Assembly: GCA_008632985.1 (NCBI GenBank)
Contig: QPGO01000009.1
Coordinates: 620,001-684,000 of the forward strand
Length of the DNA stretch: 64,000 nt
Reading direction: 5' to 3'
DNA from: Psammoneis japonica
Taxonomy: Eukaryota
Part shown: piece after piece, positions 27,851-64,000 of the stretch
Numbering within the stretch: position 1 is the first letter of the stretch
Layout: every line of letters starts with the position of its first letter
Notes under the pieces: generated by a model
What the model was told of the DNA's origin: nothing
The model's database searches: none
Seen by the model: only the letters and a program-made list of their open reading frames with translations
Program-made: the position numbers and the translations under genes

Positions 27851-28718
27851 CAGAGAGCTGGAGTCTAGAGCAGCTGCTCTCTAGAGCTGGAGAGTGGCAG
27901 TGGCCACTGCTGGAGCTGATTGACTGATGGGGAATGCAGTGCACAACAGAAAGAGACAACAAATTGAGTGTGTCTGCAAAACAGCAGGTTGGAAGGTCCC
28001 CATCTGAGGTGTCAACCTTTCCAGCTGCAACATGCTTGCTCCTTTTGTTGCACAATGACTTGAAGCATTAGCCTCAGCTCATCTTGACTGTTGTCAGAGG
28101 TGCTGCAAGTCATGCATCAAAGCTGCTGCTTGGACAGCTGCTCATGCACAAACATGGGCTTGCAAGCACTTTCATCTTTCACAAAACATTGCTGCAATTC
28201 ATTGCGCCTTTTTTCATGGTGCACATGACAAACTGCAATAGTGTGACCACAAGAAGACTCCCTCAATCAATGGACAATGTCCTCCACATGTGATTTGGTG
28301 GGTGTGTCAATGCCTGCATGTTGATGTTCACTGTCACCACAATCTGCTTGTGTTGCATGTCAGGCAAGTGCAAAGAGCAGATGTCGCAGTCTGATTTGTC
28401 AAAGTTCAGCCAAAATTGAAAATTCAAATCCAAAGCAATCAAAAGTTTTGAACAAATTTCACTTCAAAACACTTGACAACAAATCGGGAAAGTGGCTTTG
28501 CAACATTTGGACATCACTGAATTGACAACCAACAATGCAGAATGAACCCGCACTCAAAACTGCATGCACAACAATGCAGTGATCCACGCAGAAAGTCTGC
28601 ACACATCAGAGATGCAGATGTCAGGAACTTCAACAAGACATGTGTTTCACACCACATGCAAATGAAGGTGAAATTTCTGTTTTTGTGGTTGGCAATGGTC
28701 ACGTGTTGGTGACAAAGT

Positions 28719-31700
28719 TGCACTGTGCTTGAAGAATGAGTGCAAACAAAAGTTGAGCAAGTGCAAAAAGTGAAAATTGCAAGATTAAAATCTGCTCAAT
28801 CATTTTGGGTTTCTCCAAACGAGCTCTCAACAGCCCAAAGAAGCTTCTGCGCTGCTTCCACAGACCAAATGGCCCTTCAGAGAATGCGATCGTGACAACA
28901 GATTGTTTGGGTGCAACCGCTGTTGACACATGGGATTTTTCAACATCATTGTGTGATTGCATTTGCAATTTCTGACATTCCAATCAAATCTGTGTGACCG
29001 ATCTGTCCTTCGCACAAACCTGCGATCATTGATGTGCGATTGAAAATGTGATGACACTGAGACACACAAATGCACACAAAATGTGTGTGACAATGCACAC
29101 TGCACTCACCTCCCCAATTGCACATTAGAGTCATTTGCTGAATGGTGCCATGCAATGGACATTGACAGTGTCAACAATGTCACCACATTTGACATCTGCA
29201 CTGTGCAGCTGCACTGTTGTCATCACACATGGTCCAACACAAGGCTGTTCTGTTTTTTTGGAGTCTTTCTCAAGCACCATCTTTTCTCCTGTTTTGCACG
29301 TGCACGGAGTGTGTCAAGCAATGTTTTTGTTTGTGATCACTTGTTTTTGTTTCTGGACAAGAAACTTCCAATTGGCAATGTGTTGGACATTGAAAATCAT
29401 GTCTCTGTTGAAGACCAATTGTCCTGATGCAGCTCACACAACAACATGGTGTGCGGAACACACAGCAAAAGCCGCTGCTGATGGCATGCCCAAAAATGAA
29501 TTGTCTGCATCCACAGGTGCATTTTGCAAGTTGAGCGCACACAGCACATTGTCTGGCACTTGATGCATGTGTTGCACAATTGCGCTCACCTGTGGATTTT
29601 GTGTGTGTGTGTGTGTGGGTGTGGGGGGTTGACTTTAATGCCACAATCATCTTGGAAGCATGTCCTTGAGCTGATGTCCAATGAGTTCACTTCCACAGTC
29701 ACATGCAACCAATGACAACCAAGGACATCTGCTTGGCCACATCCTTTTTGACAGCCCAGCTGCAGTTGTGGATTTCTCATTTGGAATTTCCACAACTTCA
29801 AACCATCCTGTTGCTGGATTGATCATTGTCAAACATTTGAGGACCAGGGGGCTCTTCTTTCCCTTGCAATGCATCTTGCATGGTCCAATGAGATCCACAC
29901 ATGGCAGTTCCCATGGTGTGGCTTTTCACACTCAGCAGGCAAATGTCCACATTTCTTGTGTTTCTTTTTGAATTTTTGGCACGTCTCACATTTTGACACA
30001 CATTTTTGCATGTCTTTGCACAAGGCAGACCACCACAAGTGTTGCAAGATTGTCTCTTCTGTTCTGTTCATGCCAGGGTGAAGAAGGCACATGTGGTGCC
30101 AGCCCACCACTGCTTTTTGCAACATCTTTGGTGCAACGATTTCATCCTTGTGACACATGAGCAACCGGTCTTGCTCACCTCCATGAAAAGTCTTTGCATG
30201 ACATGTCTCTTTTGACAATTGGGAGAGAATGTCATTGTCCCCTTTCTGTTCAGTGTCAATGACTTTGTGTGTCAACAGAAGGACATTGTCATGGGATTTT
30301 GGTGAGATTTTTTCAGCTCGTTCTTCTGTGCTGAGATTTTCCATGGGTTCGATTTTTCTCACAGTGAGTCAGCTGATTGCATCTGCAACAATGTCAGCCT
30401 TGCCCTTGAGGTAAATTGTTCTGGGACTGCATTCTTCTGATGTTAGATGCCAACGCACAAATTCATCTGTTTTGTAAAATTTTTGTGTGAGATTTTTGTG
30501 ATCCGTGTGTGCATTTGTCTGTTGGCCAAACAGTGTGTTTTAGAACTCTTTTGGTGTTTCCACTGCAGACAGCACTTCTTTTTCTGTTGCAGTGCAATGC
30601 ATCTGTGCTCCATTCAGCTTGCAGCTGCAGAACAAAGCAGTGGGTCAGTTGTTCTGCATGACAACTGTCCCCAATTGAGAGTTGCTTGTGTCAGCACATG
30701 TCTCAAAGGGTTTGTTGAAAGTCGGGTGTGACAAAATGACTCATCTTTTGAAATGATGCACTTTGTCTTTTTGAATTCTTTTTACTCCATTTTGGTCCAT
30801 TGCTGCTTTGCCTTGGATTGGCTGAGTTTGGCCAAAGGAGCAAGAACATGAGAACATTGAGGCCACATGTCTCAACAGCAGTTGATGATGCCAACAAAGC
30901 ATCACAATTGTTTGCAAATTTTGGGAGTTGGGATTGCGTGAATTGCTTCCACTTTGTCAGGTGCCAGACCAACACCATCACAGGTGACATGAAAACCTGG
31001 ATGGCCCACTTTGAATTTGGCAAAAAAAGACTTTTTTGTGTTGACCTTCAACCCAGCTTGTTTGAGGCACATGAACACCGTTTCAAGCTCATTGAGGTGG
31101 TCTTGAAAATCACCTTTTGCAAGGCATGGCACATTGTCAACACAAGTTCTGACAAACTCTGGCCCTGCCATGAGCTCACTTGTGTGCTCTTGGAAAATTT
31201 CTGGAGCTCCACAGATTCCCACAGGCAGTCTGCAGCAGCACTCGCATTTTTCCCGGGGCATGATGATCATGCACAAGCAACATTCATGTGGAATTAATTC
31301 AATGTGACAGCACCCCATGTTTGAATCAAGGAAAGTGGCACACATGAAACACTCAAGTTTCTGTGGCATGTCTTGAACATCAGGTGGAGGGAATGGAGCA
31401 CGTGTTGACCTCTCATTTGGTTCATGGAAGTTGGGCAGGAACCAAACTTGACCATTTTTCTTTCGTTGAACAAAGGTTGGAGGTGCCCATTCAGAACAAT
31501 TTGTTTTTCTCAAGACTTTCAACTTGCATGGTTTTTCAACTTCCTTTCAAGCAGTTGCCTCCAAGGCTTGTGGCATGGGAAATGGCTTCAACATGATGTG
31601 GACTTGCATCTGATTTCACCTTGAGATCCACTGGTTTCCCGGTCCATTTGCCCAGAGAACCATCAAAAAGGCTTTCAAATGTTTTTAGCAGGAACTTCAC

Positions 31701-32950
31701 CTGCTTCTGTTCTTCCGAAGTTAGATGAGTTGCTGCTGCAGTTTCACATTGATGAGGTTGGCAGCATTGCAATCTGAGTCAAAAGGGCCCAATTGACCCT
31801 GTCATTGAGACCAATTGCAGCATGAGATTCCTCAATGCAATCAGCAATCAACTTGAAAACATTGGCAGCGAAGTGTGCATCAACATTCTTTGTCAGTCCA
31901 GTCAAATCCTTTGATTTGACCTCTTCATCAGCAAAGTCCAATGTGATTCCAAGACTGGACACATCATGTCATGTCCCAGAATCACATCATGATGTCTTGA
32001 AGAAGAGTGGGTGTTGTCAACATGCACCATTGTTTCCATCATGTGTTTGTCAAATTCAGGTGAGGAGAATTGGATTTTACACTGACTGTCAGTCATGAAG
32101 AGTCCTCCTTTGGTCCGGCAGATTCTTTTGTTCTCAGTTTCCATGTGAACTTGCACAAATTGTGCTTGGCGATGTTCTGCCATCAAGGAGAATGTGCAGA
32201 GGCTTGTTTTCACTCCACCTGAGGAGGCATTTGTGCAAGCAATGACTGGTGGACCAGCGTGGATTGCTTTGGCTCTTTTTCTGGCCTTCCCAATGTTCAG
32301 CAGCATGCAAGACTCCTTGAGTGGTGCCAGTCATTCCTCAGAATTGCTGCACATTGTTTTTTCAAACTGACAGTTTTCCTCACTGAGGGTGTCAGAGTCA
32401 TGTTCCTTGCTCTTTTGCTTTGTGTCTTTGTTCAAAGAGAACTTGTCTTGAGTGTTTTTTTAGCTGCCTGAACAATCATGTCATCCAACTCTTCTTTGCA
32501 ACTGGTGTTTTTGTTGTCATCACACAACCATGTGTGTGATTGCCATTTGAACAATGCCATTTTGGATCATGCTCATGGTTTCCATGGCATTCTTTTGATG
32601 GTCGTTCAATGACCCAGCACTTGCCTGCATCATGAGTGGTTTTTTCACAACAACTGCACCACTTCTTGGACTCAGCACCTGTGGTTGCCATTTGAACAAT
32701 GCCATTTTGGATCATGCTCATGGTTTCCATGGCATTCTTTTGATGGTCGTTCAATGACCCAGCACTTGCCCGCATCATGAGTGGTTTTTTTGCAACAACT
32801 GCACCACCTCTCAGACTCAGATCATTTGGTGCCAGATTGGCAACCATTTTGGAACCATGATTGGATCCATCCTTGGCTTTTGATCCAGACTTGTTGCTTT
32901 CATCAGAAGTGGAAGAGCAAGTTTTCCAACATGTGAAAAAAAATGTTGCT
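28719..32950 (-). mobile_element. Degenerate Ty3/Gypsy element (gag CCHC, PR, RT, RH, IN, PPT, 3' LTR 28719-29104); 5' end missing
   Basis: WCSCCEKTTHDAGKC, ILLDG, SEWAPPTF...LDSNMGCCHI...RTCVDN, LLHPGMNRTEETI...CETCQK, MDLIGP. The LTR is homologous to 54673-55050. Confidence 0.85.
32540..32820. repeat. Tandem duplication (about 145-bp period) covering the gag zinc-knuckle region
   Basis: tgccatttgaacaatgccattttggatcatgc... occurs at 32541 and again at 32686. Confidence 0.85.
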
Positions 32951-32969
32951 TGCCAAGTCTTGTTGCACT

Positions 32970-33900
32970 TCCCTTGCTTCAATCGCAACTTCTGCATCTG
33001 CCATGACATGAGCAACTGTCAACATGGCACTGTCACAACTCAAGTGTTTGAGGACAGTGAGCAGCCCATTGCATGATTCCACAGCTGCAAATTGTCTTCA
33101 GATCAATGCAGCTGCACTGCTGTGGAGAAGGAGTTGCTGTCCATTGTCAAAATGATGAGTGCGTTTTGCAATGTCCTGTCTGGACATCATGTGCACATCA
33201 AGACCAACCACCAAAACTTGTTGTTCAACAGATTCAAATCAAAGCATGTCAAACATTGGTGCCTCTCATTGGCAGAGCATGATTGTGCTTTTGAGTGTCA
33301 CCCTGGCAAGGACAACGTCATCACCAACTTTTTTAAGTTGCCATCTGGTGGCTGATGTTTTGCCGACAACTTTGAAGAAGCCGCGACCTTGGATCTCTCT
33401 CTCTCTCTGTCTGAAAATGAGTTCCTGGCCACTTGTGGCTGCACTGCAGAATGCCAAGGAGCTGCTGACAAGTCTCTTCAACTTCACAGAAAAGACCTCT
33501 TCCATGTGTGTGAGCTTTTGGTTTCAAAAACATTGCGCCATTCTGTGGAACGACAAGATTGCCCTTCCGCCAACCTTGTTCCCAACTGTGCTGTGCTTGT
33601 GTCATGATTCTCTTTGTCATGTTGGAGCCAATTGCACCCACCTTGCTCTTGCCTTCCAGCTGCACATTTGGGACATGCAAAAGTTGACCAGCCATTTTGT
33701 TTGTGCTGGGTGTTGGGTGTGTCAAAAACAGAGACGTTCCGTGAAGCAGTGCAGCGAACTGCTGCCACCAGACATCACATGCAAACCATGGCAAGTTGTG
33801 GAAGTCAATCTTTTTGGTCCCTGGTCATTTGCTGATGTTGCCAGCATTGGCCGTTCCATCAAAGCTGTCTCTGTGATCGACGTCGCCACTTGTTGGATGG
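32970..33900 (+). mobile_element. Degenerate Ty3/Gypsy fragment (RNase H plus integrase N-terminus) in opposite orientation
   Basis: CTAVEKELLSIV...IKTNHQNL...ECHPGKDNV; HDSLCHVG...CWVCQK...PWQVVEVNLFGPW. Confidence 0.8.
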
Positions 33901-34198
33901 CTGCAAGACCTCCCCCAAGAATGTCTCGCACATCGTGGATCTCCTTTTCGCATCATGCGCACATCCACCCCAATGGGGGCAGTCACCATCCAGCACTCTC
34001 CAGACATCACTGAATGGATCAGCATCTGTCGTCTTCACCCTGTCTTCTAAACTGTCCAGTTGGGGAAGCGAGGGCCGTGAGTGCGTGCGTCTGTCCGCAA
34101 GAGTGTCGTGTGCGTGTCCCATCCACATTTTTTCTCAGTGATTTTCCGAATGTTTCTCTGTGTTCTCAATGAGTCATTTCAATGACTTGTCCCTCTTG

Positions 34199-34362
34199 TG
34201 CAAGCTCAAGCTGAGGTTGATGTCAAAACAAAGAAGTGAGCAGACCGAAGAGAGGGGGAGCCCAAGCGTCAGCGAGCGCTGGCGAGCCCTCTCAAACGGC
34301 TGCATCAATCTGACATCCAAAATTGACACTGCACATCAGAAGCGTGCGAGTGAGTTGCTGCA
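34199..34362 (-). repeat. 3' LTR (164 bp)
   Basis: Direct repeat of 39462-39625. Confidence 0.95.
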
Positions 34363-37300
34363 CTCTTCCCTTCCATGATCCGAAAGAACTGGAGGATCAT
34401 GCAAAGGGCCAAAACCAAGGACCAAAACCGAAAGAAATCACAGCAGCAGGAGGAAACCCAGGTGTTGGGAAGAAAACCCCCTGATCAACCACGAAAAGGA
34501 ATCAGGCGCCAAATGTTGAGGCGCTCAACCACATGAGGAGCTTGACGAACCAAGAGCATGCCATTCACATGCACTTGAACAACAGGACAAGGGCCATGAG
34601 CACGAGGCTCGAGTCTGGACGGGTCAACCGACTTGATTGGAACTTGATCACCCACTTGACAATCGCAGGATCTTCTCTTGGCATTGGCTCGTCGCAAATT
34701 GTCGTTGATCAGCATCTGGCGATGGCCTTGAATTGTCAACAAATCCGCTGTCACAGGGATGTCTAGGATCATGTCACGTCCAAACACCACAGCACCTGGC
34801 GAAATCTGTAGAGAACGGGAAACAGCACAGCAAGTTGCATGCATTGCAGTTGCCAAAGCATCGTCCACGAGGCCAGCTGCATCCTGAAGGTTTTGAGGTG
34901 GATCAGAAGCAATGAGCGTGCGCAATGCATTGCCGATGGTCTGATGCATTTGTTCACAAATGGCACTGGCTTGAGGGTTGTACGAAGCAGTCGACACATC
35001 ATCAATTCCGGCTTGTTGCAACAGCATCTGGAACTTGCACCCAGTGAACTCGCCGCCGTCATCGTGGATGCATCAATTCGGTCTGGGACAGCGTGCAAGC
35101 CAGCAATTTTCAAATTGGTTGGCGGCATGTCAGGCAGTCTCATTTTCAATTCTCGCCAGCTCAACAAGATTGGAGACAGGATCAATGCAGGTCAATGCCC
35201 GAAACTCGATCTCTCCATTCGGTGCTTTGATTTTCCACGGGCCAATGAGGTCAACCGCCACTTCCGACCAGGGAGTCAATGGAGCCTCTCGCTCAGGCAA
35301 CTCTCCATGGCCAGGACCCAAGGTTTTGTTGCGTCGGCAATCAGCGCAAGAGCATTCATCACACATGCGATGCATGCCAGGATGACAACAATGAGCCTGA
35401 ATCGTTTCACGCATGCGCTGGCTTCCGGCATGGCCAAGGACGAGATGACACCACCGCAAGATGTCGGGCACAAGCGCAGTCGGCAAACAGATTTTCCACT
35501 GTCCTGGCGGATCATTTGGTCGCATGCGACAACACACAAGTGGTCGATTGTTCACACATTCCACAAGGAAACGATCAGGGTGAGCAGCGCGCATCTGGTT
35601 CAACTGTTGGTCCTTGAACTGGTGCTCCTGGATGCGTTGTGACATCATCTGGATTCTGCATCTCCTGCATTGCAGGGCAATTCAAGAAGGAATCAAACAG
35701 CTCCAGCTCATCGACAAAGAAAGAGAAGAAGTGTGAGTGGCCTTCATTTTCAATGTTGCGACAACACTTGAATTGGCGTGCGCCGAGCTCCAAGTCCTCA
35801 TCGCGGAAATCCTCGACTTCGGATGGTTCCTCACTCGGCACCAACTTCGAATCGAGCGGAGCAAAATCAACAACAGTTCCTTTGCCCGGAGCCAAGCTCT
35901 TCCCTTCAGAGGGAGGATCCACGCAAGGCAAATGAGAAAAACAATCAGCCAGGACATTCAATCGGCCTTCAATGCAATGGAACTGAGGGGCGAAATCTTC
36001 CAGAAAGAGTCGCCAACGAAGTGCGCGTTGTGAATTCAAGGTGCGAAAGGCAAGGTTCTTGTGGTCAGTGAATGTACGCAAGTCGCCACCAAGGAGCATC
36101 GATCGGAATTTGCGGAAGCACATGACAACGGCCAACAGTTCTTTTTCGATCGTCGAGCAGTTTTGTTGTGCCGCACTTGGCTTTTGAGACCAGCATGCAA
36201 CAGGTTTTACGTCCTGTGCAATCACTGCACCCATCTGGCAATCACTGGCATCGGTGTAGATGTGGAAGGGTTTGTTGTGATTGGGATGCACCATCAACGT
36301 CTCGGCCGCCAGGACTGCTTTCATCTCATTGAACGCCGCCTGACATTCCGTTGTCCACGTCCACAAGCCTTTGCCTGTGAGATCTGTCAAGGGTTTCAAC
36401 AGGTGAGAACGCCGAGGCCACATGTTGCGACAATGCGTCACAGCACCAAGGAACGAACGAAGCTGCTTGATGTTCTCCGGAGGTTGCATTCGCAGGATGG
36501 CCTCCACTTTTTTCTTCCACAGACGAACTCCAGTCGGAGTCAGCCAATGCCCAAGGAAACCCGTTTCCTGCACACACCATTCGCATTTCAAGGGACCCAC
36601 TTTGAACCCAGCTTCTTCCAAGCGCTGCAAGAGTCTGTCAAGACGGTCAAGGTGAATGTCAAAGTCGTCATCGAATTGAGCGAGATCATCAATGCACGCG
36701 CCAACATCCAAGTCATGCACAGTTTTCTCAATCAAATGTTGCGCAACATCTGGAGCCGGCTTCAGACCCATCGCTAGACGGCAGTGTCGACACTTTCCAA
36801 AAGGTGTCACGATTGTCGTCAGATCCTTGGAATCGTCATCCAATTCAAACGTGCAGCACATCATTGAGAGGTCCAGTTTGGTCAGAAACTTGCACCCGGC
36901 TCTCTTCTGCAGCACATCTTGAATGATCGGCAAAGGATGAACCTTGCGCTTGAGGGCTTTGTTGAGTTCCCAAAAATCACTGAGCCACCACACTCGACCA
37001 TCCTTCTTCGGCCGAATAAAAGCACCAGCAGCCCATTCCGAAGTTCCGGCTTCCTCAAGAACGCCAAGAGCCACTGAATGATCCAGTTCTTGTTCAAAAG
37101 TCTTGAGATCATTGTGCGGCACTGTGTGCGCTCAAGAATGACAAGGAACAGCGTTGGGATCAATGTCAAGGTGAACTTTTTCGCCAGCATGCTTGCCGAG
37201 AGTGCCATCGAAAAGAGCAGTGTGTTTTTCCAACACGAGGCGCAATTTTTCTTGTTGTTCGGCAGTGAGATGCTTCTGAGCTGATGCTGCTTCAGAAGGG

Positions 37301-39461
37301 GACGTCTCCTCATGCTTGGCATCGAGGATGCAGCTGTCCCGCACTTCATCATCGTTAGCTGGCTCGTCAGCCAAGTCGTCAAGCCACTGCTGGATGCCAG
37401 TCCGTTGATTTCTTGGTTTCATCGCGATGCTTGAATTGAGCCACTTGACAATTCTGTGTTCGAAATCTAACGTGACACCTGCTCTTGCCAAGAAGTCCTG
37501 CCCAAGGATCACACCGCATTGGCAAGGTGAGTCAAACACATGCGCATGCATGCCATCAACACGCTTGGTCTTGTCAAATTCAGGGAGCACCACATCCCGC
37601 AGTCAAACGGCAACGAGTCGATTCGAATTCTCCCGCTGTCGTCCGAAACTTTGCAACAATTGGTCCTGTTTCCTCCAATGCTGGCACCGCTCCAACTGGC
37701 AACACCCGAGCATGAATCATTGAATGAGTTCCACCGGAGCCGAGCAACACCCGCATCACGCGCTTGCTTTCCTTGTCTTGAATGAATCGCGCCGCGAACA
37801 AGGTTGCAGGGACCACGTTTAAAGGTTTGGTTGGTTTTGTTTTTGGGGTTGGCACAGCGTGCTCAAGTCCCACATCGTCTTTGTCATTCACAGCACAATT
37901 TTCGAAATCGTCATCATCAAACAAATCAGCAGCATGCGCGCGACAATCATCAATGCAATCAGTGCAATCATCAAACATGCAGGAATCAGGAGCGACACAC
38001 TCGGACGACAGCTCTTCAAGCTCATTGGGTCAGTGTCGACCGCGTCCGGAGAAGCAACCACCAGGTCAAAAACTTCCCGCTCCACCTCGATGCTCACGAG
38101 GCCCTCCTGTTGAATCAAGATGATGGCTTTCAGCAGACCAATCATTGGGAGGAGCCATTCTGGCTGGATTGCCGCAACCGCCGCCATCTGCATTGGTTCG
38201 GGTGTCGTTTTGACATTGCATGCAGGAGCCACCATCTTCATGATGCTCGCCGCTGTTGCCGCCAGAGTCACAGTTTCCTCGACCGCCACAATTTCCTTGG
38301 CCACCACCACGACCTTGACAGCCATGGCCTTGCCAACCACGACCTTGAGTTCCGCCACAACCACAACCTCCACCGCGACCGCCACCTCAACCACCGCGGC
38401 CACCACATCCGCAACGCCACAATCAGTTCTTGGACGGCAGTTGTTGGAGTCAGGATTCACGGTGCAATCTTTCCACTTGTGATTGTGATGTGCAATGGAC
38501 ATTGGGATTCTGGGTCAATGCGATTGCCTTTCTTCTTGTTCGAGCTGCCTTTAGACTGTCCATCCTTGCGCTTTTTCGATGTCTTCTTGTTCCTGTCCGC
38601 AAACGATTTCTCTGTGCTCACATGCGTGACAATTTCCGCTGGCATGTCATTTCCAATCGTGCGTCCTGCTCTTGCACACATCTCGCGCCACGACAGAGGG
38701 AAGCTGTCAAAAATCATCTTCTTCTTCTGGTTCTGAGCAACAACTGGATTGTTTCCCAGCAACGTGCCAAAGTTTCCATTCGATCCGCGTGTGCCTGTGC
38801 TTCAACGTCGTGCGGCTTTTTAAGAGCAAGCAAGCATTCAATCATCGTGTCACGTGCTTCAGTTTCACAATGCGACAAATAAAAACGAGCCAATTCTTGG
38901 TCAAAACGAGCCACCGTCTTCTGCGCATCTGGAATCGCCATGGTGAGATTGGACCATTTGTCTTCAGCAGCATCCGCCAACACTTCCTCAAAGTTGTCAA
39001 ACAATTCTTCTCCCGCAGTGAATTCGAGTTTTGCAGCCAGTTTACGAAAACGATCTTCCACGAACAACAACGCTTCAATTCCATTGCTTCCGTCAAAACG
39101 AGGGCACTTTTTTGTGCACGTGCTTCCATCGTCGTGCGATTGAGTCAACTTTGCGAGCTCCAAATCCGAATGGGCAAATTTCGCAGCATGCAAAATGCAC
39201 GGTTCCTTGGGGCTCTCGCGATTGCTCATCAGGCCAAGTTGGTCTGCCAAGGAACTGTTTCAAGCACTCTACCTTCGATTCGAGCTGTGCTGCTTGAATC
39301 GCCAAATCCTGTTCGCGTTGTTTTCGTGTCTCCTTTTCTCGTTTTTGCTCCAAAGCCCAGTTTGCTGCCGTCGCTCTCAATGTTCTTTTCTCTTGTTTCG
39401 CAAGCCTGTCAGTTGCATCGTTGTTTCTCATTCAGCTCTTTACAATCGACTGCAGTCACAG

Positions 39462-39625
39462 TGCAAGCTCAAGCTGAGGTTGGTGTCAAAACAAAGAAGT
39501 GAGCAGACCGAAGAGAGGGGGAGCCCAAGCGTCAGTGAGCGCTGGCGAGCCCTCTCAAACGGCTACGTTAATCTAACATCCAAAATTAATGCTATGTGTC
39601 AGAAGCGTGCGAGTGAGTTGCTGCA
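39462..39625 (-). repeat. 5' LTR (164 bp)
   Basis: Direct repeat of 34199-34362. It retains several TpA sites lost in the other LTR. Confidence 0.95.
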
Positions 39626-41720: not shown

Positions 41721-44700
41721 ACAGGAATGCATTCTCTTTGGCACGATCCATGATGTTTGCTCTGTGGCACTTCTACACTGCATTCAATGATGGAAAATCA
41801 GCGACCCCATCTAGACCACAGCACTGCATGGGTTCCAGGAAGTCCCTGTGCCATCCACACAGGTTGGCGCTGTGGATGTCAGCATTGCATTGTACCTTCA
41901 TGTGATGTGGAGCCTTGTGCATGTTGGCAAGTGGTTTCTGCAGCTCATCAAACATGCTGCAGAACAGCTGGCCACAAGCACAAGGTCCTTCACCTCACGT
42001 TTGTCACTCTGCTGCCTTGGGCTGCTCCTGCAACAGGCAAAAACAGAACTGGCTGAGGCAAGCAAGCAGCCTTTGGTGTTCTGGATTGTTGGAGCCTTCT
42101 GGGAGAAACTGTGCTGCCAACAACAACTCATCTTGTTCCATGGAAGTGGCCCAAGCCTGAGATGGGAAAGTGACCTTGCCATCCTTGCTTGCTTTGCCAC
42201 ATGCAACAGTGCACCCCTGGGCTTGGAACCCACCTCCTCACTCATCCAGAGCCTCCTTGACCACCTCAAGACTGGCCGCACTAGCTGCTGGGCTGTTGTT
42301 GCCTTTGGCGACAAAAGCTGGCTTGGCATTGTCTGCACGACTGCCCTGTGGTGGTGCTTGGTGGTGTGCATCATTGCTTGCTTGAGGATGTGGCAGCATG
42401 ATGCCTCCTTGATGGATTTGGGGCACTCATCTCAGCCCCTGGTGCACTTGCTTTCCACATGGACCACAAGGAAGGCCTCCACACCTCTGACAGTCACAGG
42501 CCACTTTTTGGCAGAAATGGTGCCCCCCCCCCCCCCCCCCACACTCATTCTGGGTGTGCAGATTGTTGTGGTGCAGCAGATGGTGTGGTGGTGTGGCAAA
42601 GTGTTGAAAAAAAAATGATGTGGTGTGTGAACACAAATCTGCCCATCAACTCATGTGCTCATGTTTGGGGCTCTCAATGGAAATGTGTTGACAGGGCAGC
42701 TCCAAGCAGCACACATGTCTCCCACAGCCCAAAATGCCTCACCTTGTGTGTGACTGCATCCACTCTGAAAATGAGCTTTTGGTTTGATGCATGTTCTGGC
42801 AAACAATGATGGCAAGCCTCCCCGCTGTGCAAATCTGCCTCTCTCACAGCTTTGTCAAAACAGGCTTGCTTTCTTTGCCTTGATTCACAGTGGACAATGC
42901 ACCTTTGAAAGCTTTTGTGACACAACAATGAAACACATGGTGGTGGCACTCTTCATGAGAAAACACTTGTTGCCAGACTGGGTTGCTCAACCTGACATCA
43001 ACTCTGCTGAAGAGCAGGGCTTTGTCCTCTTGCCTGGATGAAATGAAAGAAAAAAGGTGAGTTGTGGCACTGTGAATTTGAGTCATGCAGCTTTGGTGGT
43101 TTCTTGCTTGTGCCTTGCTTGTGCCTTTGCTCAATTGTCACACTGTTGTTCTGCCATCTTTGTTTTCTGTGACATGTTTTCACTGTCATTGTCCAATTGT
43201 TGTGCTGAGTTTGTTTGATGACATGCAATTGTGCAGGCTTTTGAAACCCTCCAGGCAAAATTGGGCACCAAGGCTTGCCCCCCAGCTTTGGATGACTGGG
43301 CCTTTGATGGCCTTGAAATGAAGGAGCTGCTGCAGCTCATCCAAAGTGATGATGCATGGGAGCAACAAGTCCTTGGCAAGATCAAGTGAAGCCAGACAGA
43401 TGCACTGCAAGGTCAAAAATTTATTCTCAGTGATGACAAAGAAGAAGCGCAATTGTGGATCAAGGATGGAAGAAGTGTTGACCTTGTAGCTCTGACAACA
43501 GAAAAACCAGTCTTGCACCACACATGGGCCACTTGCTTGTTTGTCTCCCTCCAGCTTTAGATCTGCACATCAACAGCATTGTCCTTTTTCCCATGCAGCT
43601 CACTTCAAAATGCAGATGGAACAATGTTGCTCTCCTCTTGGCTCTTGACATTTTTCTCATGTGGAACAATGGAATGTTCTTGCAACACTCTGAACTGCGT
43701 GGGCCACAGCCATTTCCCATCTCTCTGTTGCCAGCAGTGGCTGCCTTCCAACCTTGGTTCAGCAGTTGGGAGCACATGTGTGGAAGCACCACACACAAAA
43801 ATGCGAGCAAAAGAGTGAGAAGAAGCACAACATGGCAAAAGCATGTGAGACATGAAAGAACCAAGAGGCTGTCAAATTTCCAAAAAAAAAAGAGTGGAAG
43901 AACAAACTCATCATTGCAACTGCAATTTGTGGAATTCAAAGTTTTCAACAAGCACAGAAACTCTGAAGCAAAGCTGTTTGACAGGCTGGGGAGGTGTGTG
44001 GAAGTGCAGTGAGTTGGCATGTGCAAAGAGAGGGGGGGGGGGGGGGGGGGGGGGTGCGCACCAGATGGGGTGGCAAGTTTGCTTGGAGTCCAACTTCTCC
44101 TGTGAACAATGGGACAGTTGACTGGCAAGAGCCTTGGCAGTGGCAAAACCAAGGCTTGCAGCCCCCATTCAGGTGGGGACACTGACAGCAAAGCAGGTCA
44201 CTCCAAATTGGGAGAAAGAAGCCAGCTCATGCACATGGCAGGGGCAGACCAGAAAAGGCTTTGGGGCAAACAAATGGCACAGGAGGAGGCAGCAAATTCT
44301 GAAGGGTGCTGGAAAGAGGCTGCAGTGATCCAGGGAGGAGCTGGAGGGAGAGACAGGGTGTGTTCTCAGTGGCACCAACAAGCAGGGGAGAGAATGGGAA
44401 AAATGTTTCCAGGCACCAAAGTGGTTGACAGTGAGTGAGACAATGCAGACACTGTTTTGTCATCAAGGGAGCAAGCAAAAGCAGGACCAAACTGGGCCTT
44501 GTGGCTTCCACAAGACTTCGTTGGCTTGGGGATGTTGTTGTTGTTGTTGCCATCACATTGGATTGTGCATGGGTTTGCCTGCAGGTTTGTGTGCGTGCAA
44601 GACACCAACAGTCACGGAGAGTGTGTCGTGAAAAATGAACAAGGGCTTGCCTGTGGATCTGTGCATGTGGCACTCACTTCTTTTTGTGCACTGCATGACC

Positions 44701-45480
44701 TGCCCAATTCATGTGTTGCCTCCATGATGTTTGTTGTGCAATTGTGCACACATTCAATTCTGACCAACATCTCAACAACTCTGCATGTTCTTTGGCACAA
44801 AGTTGGCAATGGGAAGAGAGGGGTGGCGCGTGGTGTTGGATGTCTTGAAGTGAAGTTAACGCTGCAAAGATTAAAGACAGCCTCAATCATTTGTCAGCTG
44901 TCTCTGCACTTAGCTGGTCACAAAAGCTGCTGTTTGCAAACCCTGTGCCACTGGCAGAGGGGAGAAGGGGGAAGAAATTGTTCAAAACAGAGAAGGTCAA
45001 GAGAGAAGAACAAGGAGCTGGAACCATCACTCAAATCAATGGACAAGATGTCTTCTTCAATTGTTGACAACTTTTGCACTCATTGAAAAGGTCTGGGCTT
45101 CATTTGAAATGACTGGAATTTTTTGTGTCAGCTGCTGCCAGAGACAGCGACGACCAATGCAAGAAGGGCGCAGCGTCATGAGAGCTTGGGACATTTTGTG
45201 CTCTTCTTCTTTGCAGCCAGTGCAGAATGAGCATGTGCCATTAAAGTTGATTGGCATGGTGTCGAATCTTCACAACCATACAGAAGGGGAAGATGGGTGC
45301 TCAGCTGAGAGGGGGCTCGACCCACTGCTCGCCGTCAGCGTGGAGGGCCGCAGAGAGGACACCACCAGCATCTCTTTGTGGTGTGGCCCTGGTGGGCCAC
45401 CACTCTCTAGAGCCAGGCTCTTTTTGAACCAGCATGCATGTGCTGTTGCATGTGTTCAGTTTTCATGGCACAGTGTAAGA
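41720..45480. mobile_element. TpA/CpG-depleted degenerate repeat block, unclassified
   Basis: Same compositional signature as 21.8-34.2 kb, with long C18 and G23 runs. No domain recognised. Confidence 0.6.
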
Positions 45481-50970: not shown

Positions 50971-52413
50971 CTATGCTGGTACAGACTCCGTTACAAAGTC
51001 TCGAATGGCGGCTAGATTGGTGCACAAATCTTGAACTATTCGTCCTTCCACGAGACTGACTGGAAGATAGGCTCTTGGACTGACTTCCACGGCATAGGTT
51101 AACCGCATAGCTTCCTTTCCCTCCGGGGCACACCCTGGCAATGGCTGCATTCTCCAAACACCCTGGTACAGACGAAATTCACCACCCTCTTTGCCTTCTA
51201 GCGACTGCATTGATATATCTCGGGTCGGTAGTTTCGACAAGGCAAAAGGTCTGGGGAAGCGATACCGTTTCAACTTCACCCTTGAATTCTCCTTGGCTCT
51301 TTCCTCCCTGGATTTGCCTTCGTACATATCTTCCCGAAAGTGGGCAAAGTCAGGCATCCCCTGCGGCCACTCTCTCACTTCCAACGTTGTTTGAGCACTA
51401 AAGTTAATACCCACAACTTTTGCGCCTCCCACCTGACGTAATCTTGACCCCTTCATTTGCTTGGATAACATTTTGCACTGCTCTTCGTCTGACATTGATG
51501 TATCAACTACAAGCTTCTTATCGGACGAAGAATCCGTGTTGTACAACTCTTCAACCTCATTGACGACGAGGTTTGGAATGACATTTTGTAAATTCTCATA
51601 GTCTGTCAGCACCTTCCATACATCGTCAACACTCGCCATGATATCGATTCCTGCAAAGATTCTTCTTGAATTCTCCCGTGCTTTCTCCACTCGTGCTACA
51701 GCCTCGCCTGGCACTAAACACATATCCTCGTCTAAAAACGGTGGTCCCATGTCTTCGCAAATATGATATCCCACATCATCATAGGTCAATGTCGATACAT
51801 CCAATTCCGGTCGCCGCGCAAACTCCGACACAACTTGTTCGGCTTCCTGTGCCACTTGCACTGCCCGAGTTGCTTCCTCCACTGCCGCCACTTCTGCGGA
51901 ATCAATAGCTTTTCGTGAGAGTTCCTTGGCATTTTCCAAACTATCTCGCGCTTCCTTTAACGCCGTTTCGGCCCGCAGCAGCGCTGCTTCGGCCGACGCA
52001 AAGGCTTCTTGGACCAACACGTCGGATTCGAGCGCTTTGGCTAGGTTTTCTTGCTTGGAAACCATTTCTGCGGCACCCACGGTTGCGTCACGAAGCACTT
52101 CTGCAATTGCCTTGGGTGCAACCGATTCAATAGGCTTGACGACAATATTCTTGGCAAGCTCTTTTACCTTTTTGCGAATCTTTTTCCGACGAGAGTCCTC
52201 CTCCTCATCTTTGTCGTTGCTGTTGTTGTTTGGAGATGTCAAGTGCAACGACGATGAATGCCGATTAATCACCGAGTCTTCATGTAAATGATATGCGCAT
52301 TTCATCGATTGAGATCTTGTGGTTAAAGGTGTAGGAGAAGTTGTAAATGCGGAGCCCAAGTCACATGTAACAAGATCAAAGAACAAACACAATGCTATCG
52401 AAGAAAACTTCAT
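50971..52413 (-). CDS. Plastid-targeted START/SRPBCC (polyketide cyclase/Coq10-like) protein
   Basis: GSAFTT presequence; RRIFAGIDIMASVDDVWKVLTDYENLQNVIPNL...GEFRLYQGVWRM...LTYAVEVSP...DLCTNLAAIR. Confidence 0.85.
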   Translation of the reverse strand: MKFSSIALCLFFDLVTCDLGSAFTTSPTPLTTRSQSMKCAYHLHEDSVINRHSSSLHLTSPNNNSNDKDEEEDSRRKKIRKKVKELAKNIVVKPIESVAPKAIAEVLRDATVGAAEMVSKQENLAKALESDVLVQEAFASAEAALLRAETALKEARDSLENAKELSRKAIDSAEVAAVEEATRAVQVAQEAEQVVSEFARRPELDVSTLTYDDVGYHICEDMGPPFLDEDMCLVPGEAVARVEKARENSRRIFAGIDIMASVDDVWKVLTDYENLQNVIPNLVVNEVEELYNTDSSSDKKLVVDTSMSDEEQCKMLSKQMKGSRLRQVGGAKVVGINFSAQTTLEVREWPQGMPDFAHFREDMYEGKSREERAKENSRVKLKRYRFPRPFALSKLPTRDISMQSLEGKEGGEFRLYQGVWRMQPLPGCAPEGKEAMRLTYAVEVSPRAYLPVSLVEGRIVQDLCTNLAAIRDFVTESVPA

Positions 52414-52699
52414 CTTCCTTTCTTTTTTCGGAAGAGACACAGCTTCTCCTTCCGACTCCTTTCGCAACAACGCTTTCTCCTATTTGGCGACAACTTGATG
52501 TGTGACAATATCGCCTTGTTACTCTAAAGAGAAAGAGCAAAGAATTGCTTTTGGTTGTGGTCAGAATGTCGCTGAGTGTGTCGCACCAGTTGCTGACACA
52601 AGACATCCAATTCAGTTGTTCCTCGTCGCGAACGGCGAAACACGCAGAAATCAACACGCGGAACAAACGAAAGAGCGGAAGTTAGTTGCCACCGACCTG

Positions 52700-54235
52700 C
52701 CACCGCACATGCGCACGAACGCTGCATGCAATGATGATCGATGAGGGTTGCGACTCACAGCGAGGCACAACGGGGCTGCTGGAGGTGCCAGTGGAGTGGA
52801 GAGGCTTGTTCGCTGCAATCCTTTTTGTTTTTGCAAAGCACTCACCCTCTTGAAAACCATCTTCCTGTGCTTCCCATTTTTCTGTCAAGGTGCGGCAGCC
52901 AGCTGCTGAGGAGACAGGAGCAGCATGCTCTCACCTGCAAGAGCTCTCTCTCAAGCTGGGCAAAATGGATTCATGCCCTGGTTGGCCAAGCGCCTCTGTG
53001 CATTTTAACTCAACCATGACCTCTCCACTTTCATCTGCCTCATCTGCCGAGCTGTCTGCATGCCATGATCTTCCTTCCCAACAAGGTTGCCAGCAAAGTT
53101 TTTTTCGGAGGCTCTTCCCCTTCCAACATGCCAAGTGCTCTAAATTTTTCAACAGAGCTCTGCTGCTGCAAACACACCAGCCAGGGTGGAACAATGATGT
53201 GGACATTGTGCCAAGGGCACTGCTTGTGGCAAGCAAACATCTGCCACGACCACGGGCGCTGCTTGTGGCAAGCAAACGACAGTTGTTGCAAGCGCGGGGG
53301 GGTCTCCCAGAAAACTGGCCAAGATGAGCCTTTGTGCCAAATCACTGCCACAACTGATTTTTGAGGTGTGCAGCACAGAGTTGTGCTGCATTGCTGAAAG
53401 TTGTGTGCCAGCTCAGCGGGGAAAATCATTTCGCAGCAGCTTGTTTTGAAGCATGGGCAGGCTTTTGGACTTCTTAAAGCAAGCAAGGAGAGCCAACATT
53501 TGGTGTGCAGCCAAGGAAGCTCAACAAATTTTTGCTGTGCTGTGCACACAGTGTGGTTTGTTTGCAAGCTGTGGGCACCGCACATTGCAAAAAATGACTT
53601 GCCTCTGACAGTCGCCTCAGCGCAGTGCACAGGGCATCCCCAAAAACTGCGCTGGTGCAGCTGTGGGTCCCAACCCTCAAGTGAATCCAAACTGGCGTGG
53701 CAGGCGCGCTCCTGATGAGCGCACAGACCATCACCGCGGTGCTGTTGCGGGGAATTTGATCAAATCTCGCACCGACGATGGCGATGATTGCGACACCAAG
53801 AAAGCCATCTAAACCTTCGATTCTGCGAGAACGCATTTGGCACACAATCAATTGGCACCTGTTGGATGGGCATCTAAACGCGTTCTCCACGATTTTGATT
53901 TTGTGGCAAGCTGTTGATGAACATGCCGATTCAATCGTTCGTGACGCCATGTCACGTGCCAAGTCTTCATCAACCACTCATTCACCGGATTTTCGACACC
54001 CGCTGAGAGCAAAAGCCGGCAGATGTGTGAAGGCAAGCAATGTAGAATCGAAATGGTGTTGTTGTTGTGCCAAAGTCTCACCACTTGTTGTCTCACTCAA
54101 CTGTCATGCAGACGCAGCCAATTTTCACAGTGTCAATCGTCGTGTGAGCTCATCGACGAATCCAATGTCGCAGTCCCGTCGTCAAACCCGTTTTAGCAAT
54201 GCCAATGACAAGAGGAACATTTTTCAAGACTTGAT
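52700..54235. mobile_element. TpA-depleted degenerate repeat segment, unclassified (the signature resumes at 55051-55420)
   Basis: Very few TA dinucleotides, Tyr-free spurious ORFs, CpG partly retained. Confidence 0.55.
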
Positions 54236-55050
54236 TTGCAACATACACCTCTATATACTGAGGATCCTTTCGCTGGAATGCTGTCAGCAGTGGCATTTGC
54301 GGTACGTTCTACGTACCATACTACCACGCAAGCTACACCAGGACAACTGGTCTTCAATAGAGACATGATATTTAACGTCCAACATGTTGCAGACTGGAAA
54401 TTAATCCAGCAGCGAAAACAAGAAATCATAAATAAAAATAACGCTCGAGAGAATGCTCGACGTACTCCTTACACGTACAGAGTAGGAGAAAAGATACTAC
54501 TCGAGAAAGACTCGCAAAAATTAGAACAGCCCTATGTTGGACCGTATGTAATAACAACGGTACATGCTAATGGCACAGTACAGATCAAACGCGGTGACGT
54601 TATTGACACTGTCAATATTCGTCGGATAATACCGTTTAACGACTGACTCTAATGTGCAATTAGGGAGGCGAATGCAATATGCGTTGTTATGTACGTATTA
54701 TATATGTATATCTATATATTAAATAAAAGTATATTTCAATCGTACGTCGATCGTGGGTTCGTACGAAGTACAGATCGGTCACATAGAAGTGATCGGATGT
54801 CGAGAATCGCAAATGCGATCGTACGATGATGTTGACATCTTATGTGTCAATGTCAATCGTATCCGGACAATCTGTTGTCACGATCATATTCTCCGAAAGG
54901 CCTTTTGTCTGTAGGAGCAGTGCAAAAGGTTTAGGCTGTTGAGAACCCGTTCGGAGAAACCCAAAATGATGTCGTAGAAACAATTCTCATAATTTTCACT
55001 TTTTGAACTTGTTCTACTTTCGTTTGCACTCGTTCTTCGAGCATGGTGCA
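54236..55050 (+). mobile_element. Largely unmutated 3' fragment of a Ty3/Gypsy element (integrase C-terminus, PPT, LTR 54673-55050)
   Basis: AFAVRSTYHTTTQATPGQLVFNRDMI...KLEQPYVGPY...NGTV...VNIRRIIPF; PPT agggaggcgaa; TG...CA LTR. Homologous to 28719-29540 on the minus strand. Confidence 0.9.
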
Positions 55051-55769
55051 GGGGGGGTTGTGATTGCATGTGGAAGCATGACGTTGGGACCCACAGCAGT
55101 GCAGCAGCCAGACGAGAGGTGTCACATCTTGTCAGTCCTCATGGGATGATGCAGTGCAAGGCATCCCCAACTGTGCAGCCTCAGTGCAGCTGGAGCGGTC
55201 ACACACAATGTGCGGGGTGGTGTGTGGCACCGGCACTCAGTGCTTGTCAAAGGGCAAGCAGCACCAGCTTCCATTTTTTCAACAACTTCCATGTTTGTTC
55301 ATGTGCAGATGAGTTCACATGTTGGCCTCTGCCCAAGCCTTGATTTCAACTGGGTGTCACCACAAGGCAAGAGGTCAAAGACGCAAACACCAAATTGATG
55401 CACAGATGGAAAAAAAACAAAAAGAGGCCGCGCCACTCTGCCACGTCAGAAAGATTCGGTGTCATAACCAATCATGACCTTGAACTACCGCTGTTTGGAT
55501 AGCACAACGTCACGAAGGCAATAGGTCTTTGACCGACTTTAACACGTGTCGAAACGTGATGTCATCAAGGGCAATAAGAACCGATGACGACAAAGATAAA
55601 TCGTCGTCACTGATTCTGACGACGAAAACCGACCATCGATCTTGCTCACAACTTTTCCCAAACAACGCATACAAGCTTTCACAATAATTCACAGGAGTAC
55701 TACGCTTGACGATTCAGTACTGTCATCATAAAAAGGCAGCGAACGAATCATCATCAATAACAGTTCAGT

Positions 55770-62228: not shown

Positions 62229-64000
62229 TTAACGATATTGAGCATGCCACCTTTTTTTATACAGAGTGTGCGACTCTCGGATGACTCTCGCAACGGCGCG
62301 TCCTAGATTCAGGGGTACAGCATTGCCAATCTGTGCATTCTTCTGTGTCATGTTTCCTGAAAACTGAAAGTCATCCGGAAATGATTGGATGCGAGCTCGT
62401 TCTCGGAGAGTCAAGCAGCGCTCGTGCCTGTAGTGCTTCGCAGGATTGTTCCTACGGATAGTCGCGACAGGCTGGTCCGAGAGAAGAAGCTGCATGATAC
62501 CACTTTCTTTCAATTCAATCCCCTGTTTGGAGTGGTCCTTAATTCTTTTCCCTTTCAACATGATATGACCATAGTCTGTTGGGTCAATCTCCGCGAGATC
62601 TCCAAGGACGTCCGCGTCTCCGGCACATTGATATGGTTGAAGACCTTCTCCATGGGTTGGCTTTGGAAAATGAGGGAGAGGGACGTCCTTGCGAGAGACA
62701 ACTAGAAAGACGCGTGGCCTATCCTGAGGGTCTCCATAGTCGCTGGCTTTTAGGACCATAACTCGACTCTGATAGCCAAGTATCAACAGATCGCCATGAA
62801 GCTTGTCAAAGTATTCGCGCTTGTTTTTTGAGCTGTTCTTATCTAAAATACCGAGTACGTTTTCAAGCGACCCAGTCAAAGGCTTGAAGAATCGAATCAA
62901 CTCGACAAATTCCTCTACCAATCGATTATTGGCTTTGTCATTCTTCCCATTGCCTGTATTGACTCGGGAAAAGCCATCGCACGGAGGACTCGCATGAATA
63001 TGATCAACCGATTTTGGATAACCCTCTTTAGCGTCAACAGCGTTTCGTCGAAACACTTTTACACACTCCTCGTAGATCTCTGTACCGGGAAAGTTGATTT
63101 TTAGAGCAGAAATAGCATGATCATTATTCTCCACTTTATACAAACTCTGAAAGCCTTCTTGATCAAACGCCAAGGACGAAAGTCCACATCCTGCGAATAC
63201 ATCTAGGCAGCGGGGCTTGCCGTCGTGTGGCTCCGTCATGGGCATTGCCAAATCCTTGTAGCGGTAAGCACACGTAAACCCTGGCACCGATTCTTTGATA
63301 GACTTTTTAGGATCATCAGACTGGGGACCAAAGTAACCCTGTTCGTACACTACCATTGGCTTTCCAGGCCACGCTGGATGTCTGTCTGTGAGAGATTGTA
63401 GAGGAACTCGACCTTGATTCAAGACACCCATGGTGTTTGCCAGGGTGACCTTGTCTGGCTGTAGCAGACCTTGAGATTTCCAGGCTTCCGACACTCGCTT
63501 GGCCTCGGCCTCTCCTATAAATGTCTTATCCAACGACAAGGCAACTTCAACACAAACACCTTCCTTTACGCGTGTCTTATTTTGATGTATAAGCTTGGAT
63601 AGAGTGAAGAAATATCCCGGTTTCTGCTTGCAAGACCACGTCTCTCCACTTTTGTAAAGCCGTCTTTTACAGAACATTTTCGTTGAATCTTCCTTAATCT
63701 TGTGATGACTCGTGTTTTGTGAATCTGAGAGGAACACTCGAATGCTCGGTTGTTTCTGTTTAGAGACCTGTTGTTGCTTCGTTTCCTTCGTGTCTTCCCG
63801 CTTGGCACGTTTAGCGGCCCTTTCAGGATCATCGGCATCGGCTTTAGATTCCTCAAATTTATCTAGGACCTCCAAGTAAGCATCATCATTATCGTCATCG
63901 AGAAGTTGAGCAGCTTCGATTTCTTGCCAATCAAACTCAACCTGAGAGAGCTGTTTCTGGCATTGATCGCTCAAAGTTTCGCTTTCGGTACTGCTCTCCT
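62229..64000 (-). CDS. DNA (cytosine-5)-methyltransferase, RID/Masc1 (DNMT4)-like; 5' end runs off the window
   Basis: Motif I LDVFAGCG, IV VDHIHASPPCDGFS, VI LENV, VIII YGDPQDRPRVF, IX-X LTLRERARIQSFPDDF...QIGNAVP. No upstream stop before the window end. The C5-MTase call is secure; the subfamily call is less so. Confidence 0.85.
   Translation of the reverse strand, partial: ESSTESETLSDQCQKQLSQVEFDWQEIEAAQLLDDDNDDAYLEVLDKFEESKADADDPERAAKRAKREDTKETKQQQVSKQKQPSIRVFLSDSQNTSHHKIKEDSTKMFCKRRLYKSGETWSCKQKPGYFFTLSKLIHQNKTRVKEGVCVEVALSLDKTFIGEAEAKRVSEAWKSQGLLQPDKVTLANTMGVLNQGRVPLQSLTDRHPAWPGKPMVVYEQGYFGPQSDDPKKSIKESVPGFTCAYRYKDLAMPMTEPHDGKPRCLDVFAGCGLSSLAFDQEGFQSLYKVENNDHAISALKINFPGTEIYEECVKVFRRNAVDAKEGYPKSVDHIHASPPCDGFSRVNTGNGKNDKANNRLVEEFVELIRFFKPLTGSLENVLGILDKNSSKNKREYFDKLHGDLLILGYQSRVMVLKASDYGDPQDRPRVFLVVSRKDVPLPHFPKPTHGEGLQPYQCAGDADVLGDLAEIDPTDYGHIMLKGKRIKDHSKQGIELKESGIMQLLLSDQPVATIRRNNPAKHYRHERCLTLRERARIQSFPDDFQFSGNMTQKNAQIGNAVPLNLGRAVARVIRESHTLYKKRWHAQYR

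Follow-up and report, generated by a model that had tools for sequence, protein, structure and literature searches.

Where DNA has lost nearly all of one dinucleotide, it may be asked what removed it, at what point in the history of that DNA, and how a small island within it came to keep what its surroundings have lost. These questions are raised by 64,000 nucleotides of the genome of the diatom Psammoneis japonica (contig QPGO01000009.1, positions 620,001 to 684,000; hereafter the window, to whose first letter all coordinates refer), in which the 815-bp tail of a Ty3/Gypsy retrotransposon, copy A, keeps its TA dinucleotides amid DNA that has hardly any. An earlier note, made from the letters of the window alone, had paired copy A with a decayed homolog, copy B, as a before-and-after control. 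Here we describe evidence that TA is changed to TG or CA in mobile DNA after its integration, and that the loss of CG is a separate process. The reading that we put forward, at a probability of about 0.75, is that a post-integration TpA mutator and a slower decay of CpG have both acted here, that copy B has been through both, and that the younger copy A, having arrived later, has been through neither. The window offers three natural controls within 64 kb: copy A, which is untouched; E2, a complete Gypsy element with datable long terminal repeats (LTRs), in which TA is erased and CG kept; and copy B, in which both are lost.

The window is nuclear DNA of a eukaryote, with stretches of ordinary composition, in which rho TA is about 0.5-0.8 and rho CG about 1 in a 500-bp dinucleotide profile combined with TA-gap segmentation; rho TA is 0.57-0.58 in the regions of host genes. 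This ordinary DNA is interrupted by blocks almost devoid of TA, in which TG and CA stand at about twice their expectation:

21763-39564: TA-poor domain of 17.8 kb with 48 TA, containing copy B, an inverted Gypsy fragment and E2
41775-45408: second domain, poor in both TA and CG, 3634 bp with 11 TA and 28 CG
52521-54244: TA-poor block to the left of copy A, 9 TA
right of 55050: fourth TA-poor block, a short stretch

The limits of these blocks coincide with element borders, as at the E2 edge at 39625. This agreement excludes an effect of regional composition, against which the earlier note had also argued.

Substitutions between copies A and B

The comparison of the two Gypsy tails draws on the following features:

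54236-55050, plus strand: copy A, an unmutated 3'-terminal Ty3/Gypsy fragment of 815 bp; 67 TA, 49 CG; rho TA 0.94, rho CG 1.44
54236-54646, plus strand: open reading frame (ORF) of the integrase/pol C-terminus of A, last 136 residues, TGA stop
54647-54672, plus strand: spacer with a purine-rich run, resembling a polypurine tract by analogy with E2
54673-55050, plus strand: putative 3' LTR of A, 378 bp, starting TGCA and ending TGCA
28719-29529, minus strand: copy B, an old relative's tail homologous to A, TA and CG erased; 2 TA, 13 CG; rho TA 0.03, rho CG 0.34, rho TG/CA 2.05
29137-32114, minus strand: rest of the pol of B, with reverse transcriptase, RNase H, integrase zinc domain and integrase core (tblastn map)

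In a local alignment copy A pairs with 29529-28719 on the minus strand, which bears out the match reported earlier while moving its limit from 29540 to 29529. A BLAST search in purine/pyrimidine coding extends the match to 54229-55051 against 29536-28718, with 1048 bits; E-values from such coded searches are inflated, and their many matches of 89 bits or less were treated as noise. The 834 columns of the alignment comprise 599 matches, 193 mismatches (144 transitions and 49 transversions) and 42 gap columns. Only one of the 61 aligned TA dinucleotides of A is kept in B, with 29 having become TG, 20 CA and 11 something else, so that both strands are affected; for the 46 aligned CG dinucleotides, the corresponding fates are 7 kept, 19 CA, 16 TG and 4 other. 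The single TA retained in B lies within 29129-29135 (minus strand), between the stop codon of B and its purine run.

Counted by the class of base in A, changes were found at 63/126 bases in TA, 40/94 in CG, 50/341 at other A or T and 40/231 at other G or C. The TA and CG dinucleotides of A thus carry 103 of the 193 mismatches on 220 of the 792 aligned bases, a strong enrichment and a slim majority where the earlier note had placed the differences "mostly" at these sites. The count by dinucleotide context, on which that note had staked its case, came out in its favor: with the strands symmetrized, transitions at A preceded by T are found at 52/126 positions, against 29/341 for the other 5' neighbors (Fisher odds ratio 7.6, p 5e-15). 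When these neighbors are separated, the figures are 13/128 after A, 13/106 after C and 3/107 after G, the last being the least changed context (3/107 against 26/234 after A or C, p 0.011). At C, transitions occur at 36/94 positions when G follows and at 27/231 when it does not (odds ratio 4.7, p 1.5e-7). Transversions amount to 4-9% in every context class, and therefore the excess in TA and CG is purely transitional. The change from TA to TG or CA is dinucleotide-specific.

The direction of change was examined through the encoded protein. The frame of copy A is open for 136 codons up to its TGA stop and contains the motifs STYH and PYVGPY, as had been noted; in copy B the reading is PCVGPC, two stops interrupt the frame and a short stretch lies out of it. 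A phmmer search with the integrase tail of A against 1.84 billion representatives returned 3315 relatives at E<=0.001, the long ones among them with the domain order RVT_1, RNase H, Integrase_H2C2, rve, and A matches roughly the 130 residues that follow rve. When A and B were aligned with the 60 best relatives of A as outgroups, the outgroup frequencies at the 64 columns where the two copies differ favored A at 57 and B at 6, with one tie. Tyrosine is present in A at every column where it is the commonest outgroup residue; it makes up 6/136 residues of A, 0/133 of B and 1/519 of the E2 ORF, is absent from the two other scanned ORFs of B, and reaches 3.3% in four long outgroup pols. Cysteine and histidine are raised in the mutated copies B and E2. 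Given the outgroup preference and the loss of tyrosine, TA and CG are the ancestral states, as the earlier note had proposed for TA from the intact motifs, and B the derived copy.

The Pfam domains RVT_1 (30905-31546) and Integrase_H2C2 (29832-30368) were found in B, whose pol has the Ty3/Gypsy order of reverse transcriptase, RNase H and integrase; B is an old Ty3/Gypsy relative, truncated at its 5' side. No 5' LTR of B was found in 31900-34198, where the best local score in purine/pyrimidine coding was 43 against a null maximum of 58. The TG...CA ends of A and B are seen in one putative LTR (TGCA...TGCA), with no LTR pair in the window.

TA loss after integration in element E2

A better control than the A/B pair is E2, which carries both of its LTRs:

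34199-39625, minus strand: E2, a complete Gypsy element of 5427 bp; 22 TA, 298 CG; rho TA 0.07, rho CG 0.84
37602 to 34491: pol of E2 (tblastn with three long pols)
34199-34362, minus strand: 3' LTR, 164 bp, 0 TA; followed by the duplication CAAGA at 34198-34194 and adjoining older erased DNA
39462-39625, minus strand: 5' LTR, 164 bp, 5 TA; preceded by CAAGA at 39630-39626

The target-site duplication of 5 bp, CAAGA, is present on both sides, and a purine tract precedes the 3' LTR. The two LTRs differ at 14 positions, none of them by transversion, and 13 of the 14 are of TA or CG type: five TA in the 5' LTR stand against TG or CA in the 3' LTR, and the remainder consists of three pairs in which TG faces CA, two CG sites and one other difference. 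The pairs of TG against CA would go back to an ancestral TA or, less likely, CG. Because LTRs that were identical at integration now differ in this way, TA has been changed in the DNA after integration, at a rate far above background.

The 5' LTR also records where the process stops. All five of its TA fall in the 61 bp next to the outer edge, beyond which lies TA-normal DNA. Of the 22 TA surviving in the whole of E2, 5 are no more than 70 bp from this edge (p 8e-6 by the binomial against an even spread), and TA is normal from 6 bp outside the LTR. In this single case, the TA process does not pass the border of the element and loses strength over its outermost bases, a pattern more readily explained by recognition of the sequence of the element itself than by a chromatin domain that spreads.

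The erasure of TA and the decay of CG are separable. Whereas rho TA is 0.03-0.11 in every transposon-derived block, rho CG ranges from 0.84 in E2 through 0.67 in the left flank of A, 0.37 in its right flank and 0.34 in B to 0.15 and 0.12 in two large old blocks. Because rho TA is uniformly low while rho CG varies, TA saturates early and CG decays slowly. E2, with its CG kept, is in keeping with a TA process that brings no excess of G:C-to-A:T change, and we attribute the CG lost from B and from the older blocks to a second process, slower than the first. Together, A, E2 and B put the events in order, with a TA erasure that is fast, border-limited and post-integration, and a CG decay that is slow.

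Repeated DNA of another kind is left alone by the TA process and serves as an internal control. Three tandem copies of a gene unit (11238-12841, 13752-15357 and 16748-17902), 82% and 67% identical, have a normal TA content, equal TA counts (66 vs 73; 48 vs 45) and a transition-to-transversion ratio near 1.

A comparable separation is seen among environmental relatives. A metagenome search with a six-sequence alignment as query yielded 310 confirmed relatives, of which we describe the best 80, ranked by likeness to the unmutated query and thus biased against mutated copies. Three of the 80 loci are TA-poor and rich in TG and CA, namely L007 (1-1280), L026 (1-1180) and L077 (1-1061), with rho TA of 0.06, 0.13 and 0.22; a further 13 are poor in CG only, with rho CG <0.3 and rho TA >=0.56 (among them L044, L021, L015, L049, L024 and L031). 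Compared with its nearest less-mutated relative, L007 has kept 0 of 52 TA and shows TG or CA at 29 of these sites; in the same comparison for L077, 38 of 65 TA have become TG or CA, and a TA left as it was does not figure among the five most frequent fates. Because of their shared outcomes, L007 and L026 are taken as one mutated lineage in two assemblies. In this Gypsy lineage CpG decay is common, and TA erasure is rarer and host-specific. Of the 150 best protein relatives, 8 lack tyrosine altogether and 13 contain <=1%, the median being 3.2%.

Probable late arrival of copy A and rival explanations

The case for a late arrival turns on the edges of copy A and on its flanks:

52521-54235: left flank of A, TA-poor; rho TA 0.11, rho CG 0.67 over 52500-54235
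55051-55464: right flank of A, TA-poor; rho TA 0.08, rho CG 0.37 over 55051-55500

In tblastn comparisons with three long pols, only the last 130 residues match A, at 54260-54643, and no pol-like sequence was found to the left of 54236; copy A is therefore a 5'-truncated tail and not the intact fragment that it had been called. None of the 23 ORFs in 52379-55395 matched a Pfam family at E<=0.01, the integrase C-terminal ORF of A itself included. The homology of A and B ends together at the last base, 55050, and the LTRs of E2 likewise follow a purine run and start and end with TGCA. Judged by its termini, by the purine run before it and by the point at which A and B cease to match, 54673-55050 is probably a 3' LTR, for which a rise of summed contig depth over the same interval gives a weak hint. 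The sharp edges described in the earlier note are present in the composition, with the last TA before A at 54194, those of A running from 54244 to 55015 and the next at 55465, so that the limits of the TA-rich tract and of the homology block are no more than 8 bp apart on the left and 35 bp on the right; the right edge itself is best read as a natural LTR terminus, that is, as an ordinary insertion boundary.

On the left, A meets another repeat family, at 53716-54235. In sister copies of this repeat, TA and CG stand at sites that read CA or TG in the window (compared by eye with a loose-end consensus), and the sequence of these copies diverges after 54232. The left edge of A would be a truncation joint with another, mutated repeat. 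On the right, seven G (55051-55057) directly follow the putative LTR end; the 49 bases at 55051-55099 are also present in a second contig, where the sequence on either side is different, and the likeness of a sister contig to the right flank begins exactly at 55051. A gene-conversion or repair patch on a mutated resident element was considered as the origin of A and rejected, there being neither pol similarity nor B homology in the flanks. None of 163 candidate homologues of a 239-aa ORF in the left flank (53043-53759, minus strand) reached E<=0.001.

These sister copies come from contigs, the only material compared, of three sequencing runs that all derive from one sample, probably that of the window itself. 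The single-copy contigs flanking A have depths of 57-61, ending at 53715 and beginning again at 55070; between these points, run X1 holds 1045 pieces at >=90%, with a summed depth in the thousands. Both the family of A and the left flank at 53716-54235 are therefore repeats. Of the variant positions tallied in this run, 55 of 56 are transitions. A 130-base contig identical to 54399-54528 has a word depth of 523, against 57-61 in the single-copy flanks, which hints at several identical copies and a young A family.

The mechanism that we propose would convert TpA to TpG or CpA, an A:T-to-G:C change on either strand, in mobile DNA after its integration, and would run nearly to completion within individual elements. 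A separate and slower decay of CpG to TpG or CpA would follow, most likely by deamination of methylated cytosine. For the first step the leading guess is that the adenine of TpA is deaminated in DNA, by analogy with a preprint on the chlorarachniophyte Bigelowiella natans (Mettrop et al., bioRxiv 10.64898/2026.01.13.699255). Copy A would have inserted, with its LTR end to the right, into DNA that was already TA-erased, and its arrival most likely came after the mutator had last acted at this locus. Arrival is favored because the right edge is a normal terminus, the flanks are more CG-decayed than A, and A itself is without TA loss.

A question about this history is whether A came late or was already in place while its surroundings were mutated and merely escaped recognition, which we consider unlikely. 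Escape could have come about if 815 bp were too short for a length-dependent recognition, if the family was not yet targeted (for example by small RNA), or if chromatin gave protection; and escape at edges does happen, as the 5 TA kept within 61 bp of the boundary in the outer LTR of E2 attest. Both flanks of A are mutated, moreover, and A and the left-flank repeat are both truncated at their joint, which leaves the order of the two events unfixed. However, A shows no partial mutation, with rho TA at 0.94 and tyrosine kept at all outgroup-tyrosine columns; its right edge abuts older DNA, with rho CG of 0.37 against 1.44, as fits a later insertion; and the 130-base stretch identical to a contig of about ninefold depth suggests a young family. 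That the island is instead an artefact, A being an assembly chimera or the TA-poor blocks being foreign DNA of natively odd composition, is very improbable. A run of seven G does follow the right junction, and none of the contigs listed bridges it or the left one at 54236. Against this, the breakpoints are a codon-exact start of integrase homology and an LTR terminus, the contigs of sister copies cease to match at precisely 54232 and 55051, as at real borders, and the polarity test, the loss of tyrosine and the LTR pair demonstrate change in place as opposed to a native composition.

As to chemistry, 5-hydroxymethyl- and 5-formyl-uracil, formed from thymine by oxidation, mispair with G, and a thymine lesion of this sort in TpA might take the place of adenine deamination; we hold this doubtful, if still appreciable. 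T-to-C on one strand is A-to-G on the other, so that the 29 TG and 20 CA outcomes fit both chemistries, and adenine deamination is itself put forward in the preprint as a hypothesis, from an ADAT2-like protein; nothing in the sequence, however, favors a thymine lesion over adenine deamination. Far less credible, and indeed barely so, is that transcripts were edited from A to I by an ADAR-like enzyme before reverse transcription. The discussion in the same preprint mentions a preference of ADAR for U before the edited A, and in our data A after G is the least changed context. Editing of RNA is nevertheless contradicted by the LTRs of E2, which were identical at integration and now differ at TA sites; both strands are affected, and flanking repeats that are not retroelements are mutated too.

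Several observations weigh against our preferred reading, in which a post-integration mutator was followed by the arrival of A. Transversions separate A and B at 49 of 792 sites (6.2%), and about 15% of the sites outside TA and CG differ, so that the strict before-and-after pair of the earlier note falls: A and B are old, diverged relatives and not one copy seen at two times, and part of the contrast between them is ordinary divergence. At nine dinucleotides TG in A faces CA in B or the reverse, as would be expected if an ancestral TA or CG had been resolved separately in each lineage. The same-strand outcomes at TA cluster marginally (18 runs against 24.7 expected, z -2.0), those at CG not at all (z +1.25), which lends faint support to patchwise action on one strand. 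The outgroups of the polarity test, chosen with A as the query, bias that test towards A, although despite this choice they include columns conserved family-wide (Y at 0.92, N at 0.93, P at 0.98). The putative LTR of A has no second LTR to match it, and among the pieces listed from the three runs no contig bridges 54236 or 55050. Finally, the family of A appears to be multi-copy and yet unmutated, so that repetition alone would be no trigger.

More tentatively, and at somewhat less than even odds, we suggest that diatoms possess a sequence-guided mutator that proceeds element by element, removes TpA as far as the borders of each insertion and no further, is either episodic or limited to recognized families or to copies beyond a certain length, and spares copies that are new or short, such as A, amid DNA erased before. 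It would be an A:T-to-G:C counterpart of repeat-induced point mutation (RIP), shared with at least one rhizarian alga and perhaps ancient in the stramenopile-alveolate-rhizarian (SAR) assemblage.

Known mutators and other features of the window

The RIP of Neurospora and other ascomycetes consists of dense C:G-to-T:A transitions at CpA, which enrich TpA; it strikes any duplicated sequence of sufficient length and is tied to the sexual stage. It resembles the process in the window in that mobile DNA is inactivated where it stands, by dense transitions specific to certain dinucleotides that end sharply at the edges of the repeat. It differs in its direction, as TA is destroyed here and GC rises, and in that multi-copy DNA is not always hit here, as seen in the tandem gene copies and, on weak evidence, in the family of A. 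Editing by ADAR and APOBEC acts on RNA or first-strand cDNA, is biased to a single strand and leaves LTRs identical; deaminase-type transitions in retroelement copies are common to both, but here both strands are changed and the LTRs differ. A targeted A:T-to-G:C mutator would be a genome defence with a chemistry opposite to that of RIP and APOBEC, and a possible natural source of a TpA-specific DNA adenine editor.

The closest parallel is found in B. natans, where the DNA of integrated giant viruses and virophages is hypermutated at TpA; this is the only description of TpA erasure that we found in the literature, where we found none for diatoms. According to the preprint (Mettrop et al., bioRxiv 10.64898/2026.01.13.699255), mutation-accumulation lines gained 231 changes in two viral inserts, of which 230 were A:T-to-G:C, all at TpA, and hypermutation was seen in only 11 of 15 lines. 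The two systems share A:T-to-G:C transitions at TpA only, giving TpG or CpA according to strand; a limitation to foreign or mobile DNA, with ordinary DNA beside it; an apparently episodic action; and the kind of sequence affected, TpA-poor coding sequences in B. natans being enriched for reverse transcriptase and DDE domains. They differ in host, a chlorarachniophyte there and a diatom here, and in extent, with a rho TA of 0.45 in the viral insert and LTR retrotransposons near saturation at 0.03-0.11 in the window. CpG decay is found in the older blocks here, and a full-text search of the preprint counted no occurrence of CpG; the rate in B. natans was measured de novo, whereas the present data are fixed differences, 13 of the 14 between the E2 LTRs being at TA- or CG-type sites. 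To that work the window adds three states side by side, an edge effect at an element border, the separation of TA from CG loss in environmental relatives as well, and the indication, for which the evidence from the family of A is weak, that something more than repetition is needed as a trigger.

The CG half of the pattern resembles a familiar process, the deamination of 5-methylcytosine, by which the CG of methylated transposons becomes TG or CA. Such change is found at 35/46 CG in B, in the older blocks, and alone in 13/80 metagenome relatives; it covers only CG, whereas TA loss is complete even where CG is kept, as in E2 with rho CG 0.84. Methylation of diatom transposable elements has been reported by Hoguin et al. 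(2023, PMC9998398), who relate the diatom DNMT4 group to fungal RID. At 62229-63998 (minus strand), and open at the window end, the window encodes a single-domain C-5 cytosine methyltransferase (PF00145, E 1e-48). Its named homologues are all from diatoms (Cylindrotheca, Cyclotella and Seminavis), some with an N-terminal chromodomain, and the feature cluster nearest to it is that of an ascomycete methyltransferase with 576 aa. The protein fits the diatom DNMT4 group and gives a hint, short of a finding, as to the CG-to-TG side of the pattern.

For annotation, TA-erased blocks have a practical consequence: lacking TAA and TAG stops and tyrosine codons, they give rise to long spurious ORFs and hide transposons from similarity searches.

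The largest TA-poor domain contains further traces of transposition:

32903-33911, plus strand: inverted Gypsy fragment with RNase H and integrase zinc domain, between B and E2
32530-32820: 146-bp tandem duplication, 99% identical in purine/pyrimidine coding, adjoining the inverted Gypsy fragment

Together these indicate nested insertions in an old block poor in TA and CG. The lone N of this old DNA stands at 26029, inside the TA- and CG-poor block. At 4274-6312 a unit of 111 bp (37 residues) is repeated in tandem 18.4 times, within long overlapping ORFs on both strands; the array has matches to FAST_1 and DUF1601, a rho TA of 0.19 and CG retained, and it was not counted as hypermutation, since amplification of one TA-poor 111-bp unit could suffice. 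A THUMP/RlmL-like protein encoded in the window has its nearest feature cluster in Bacillariophyta.

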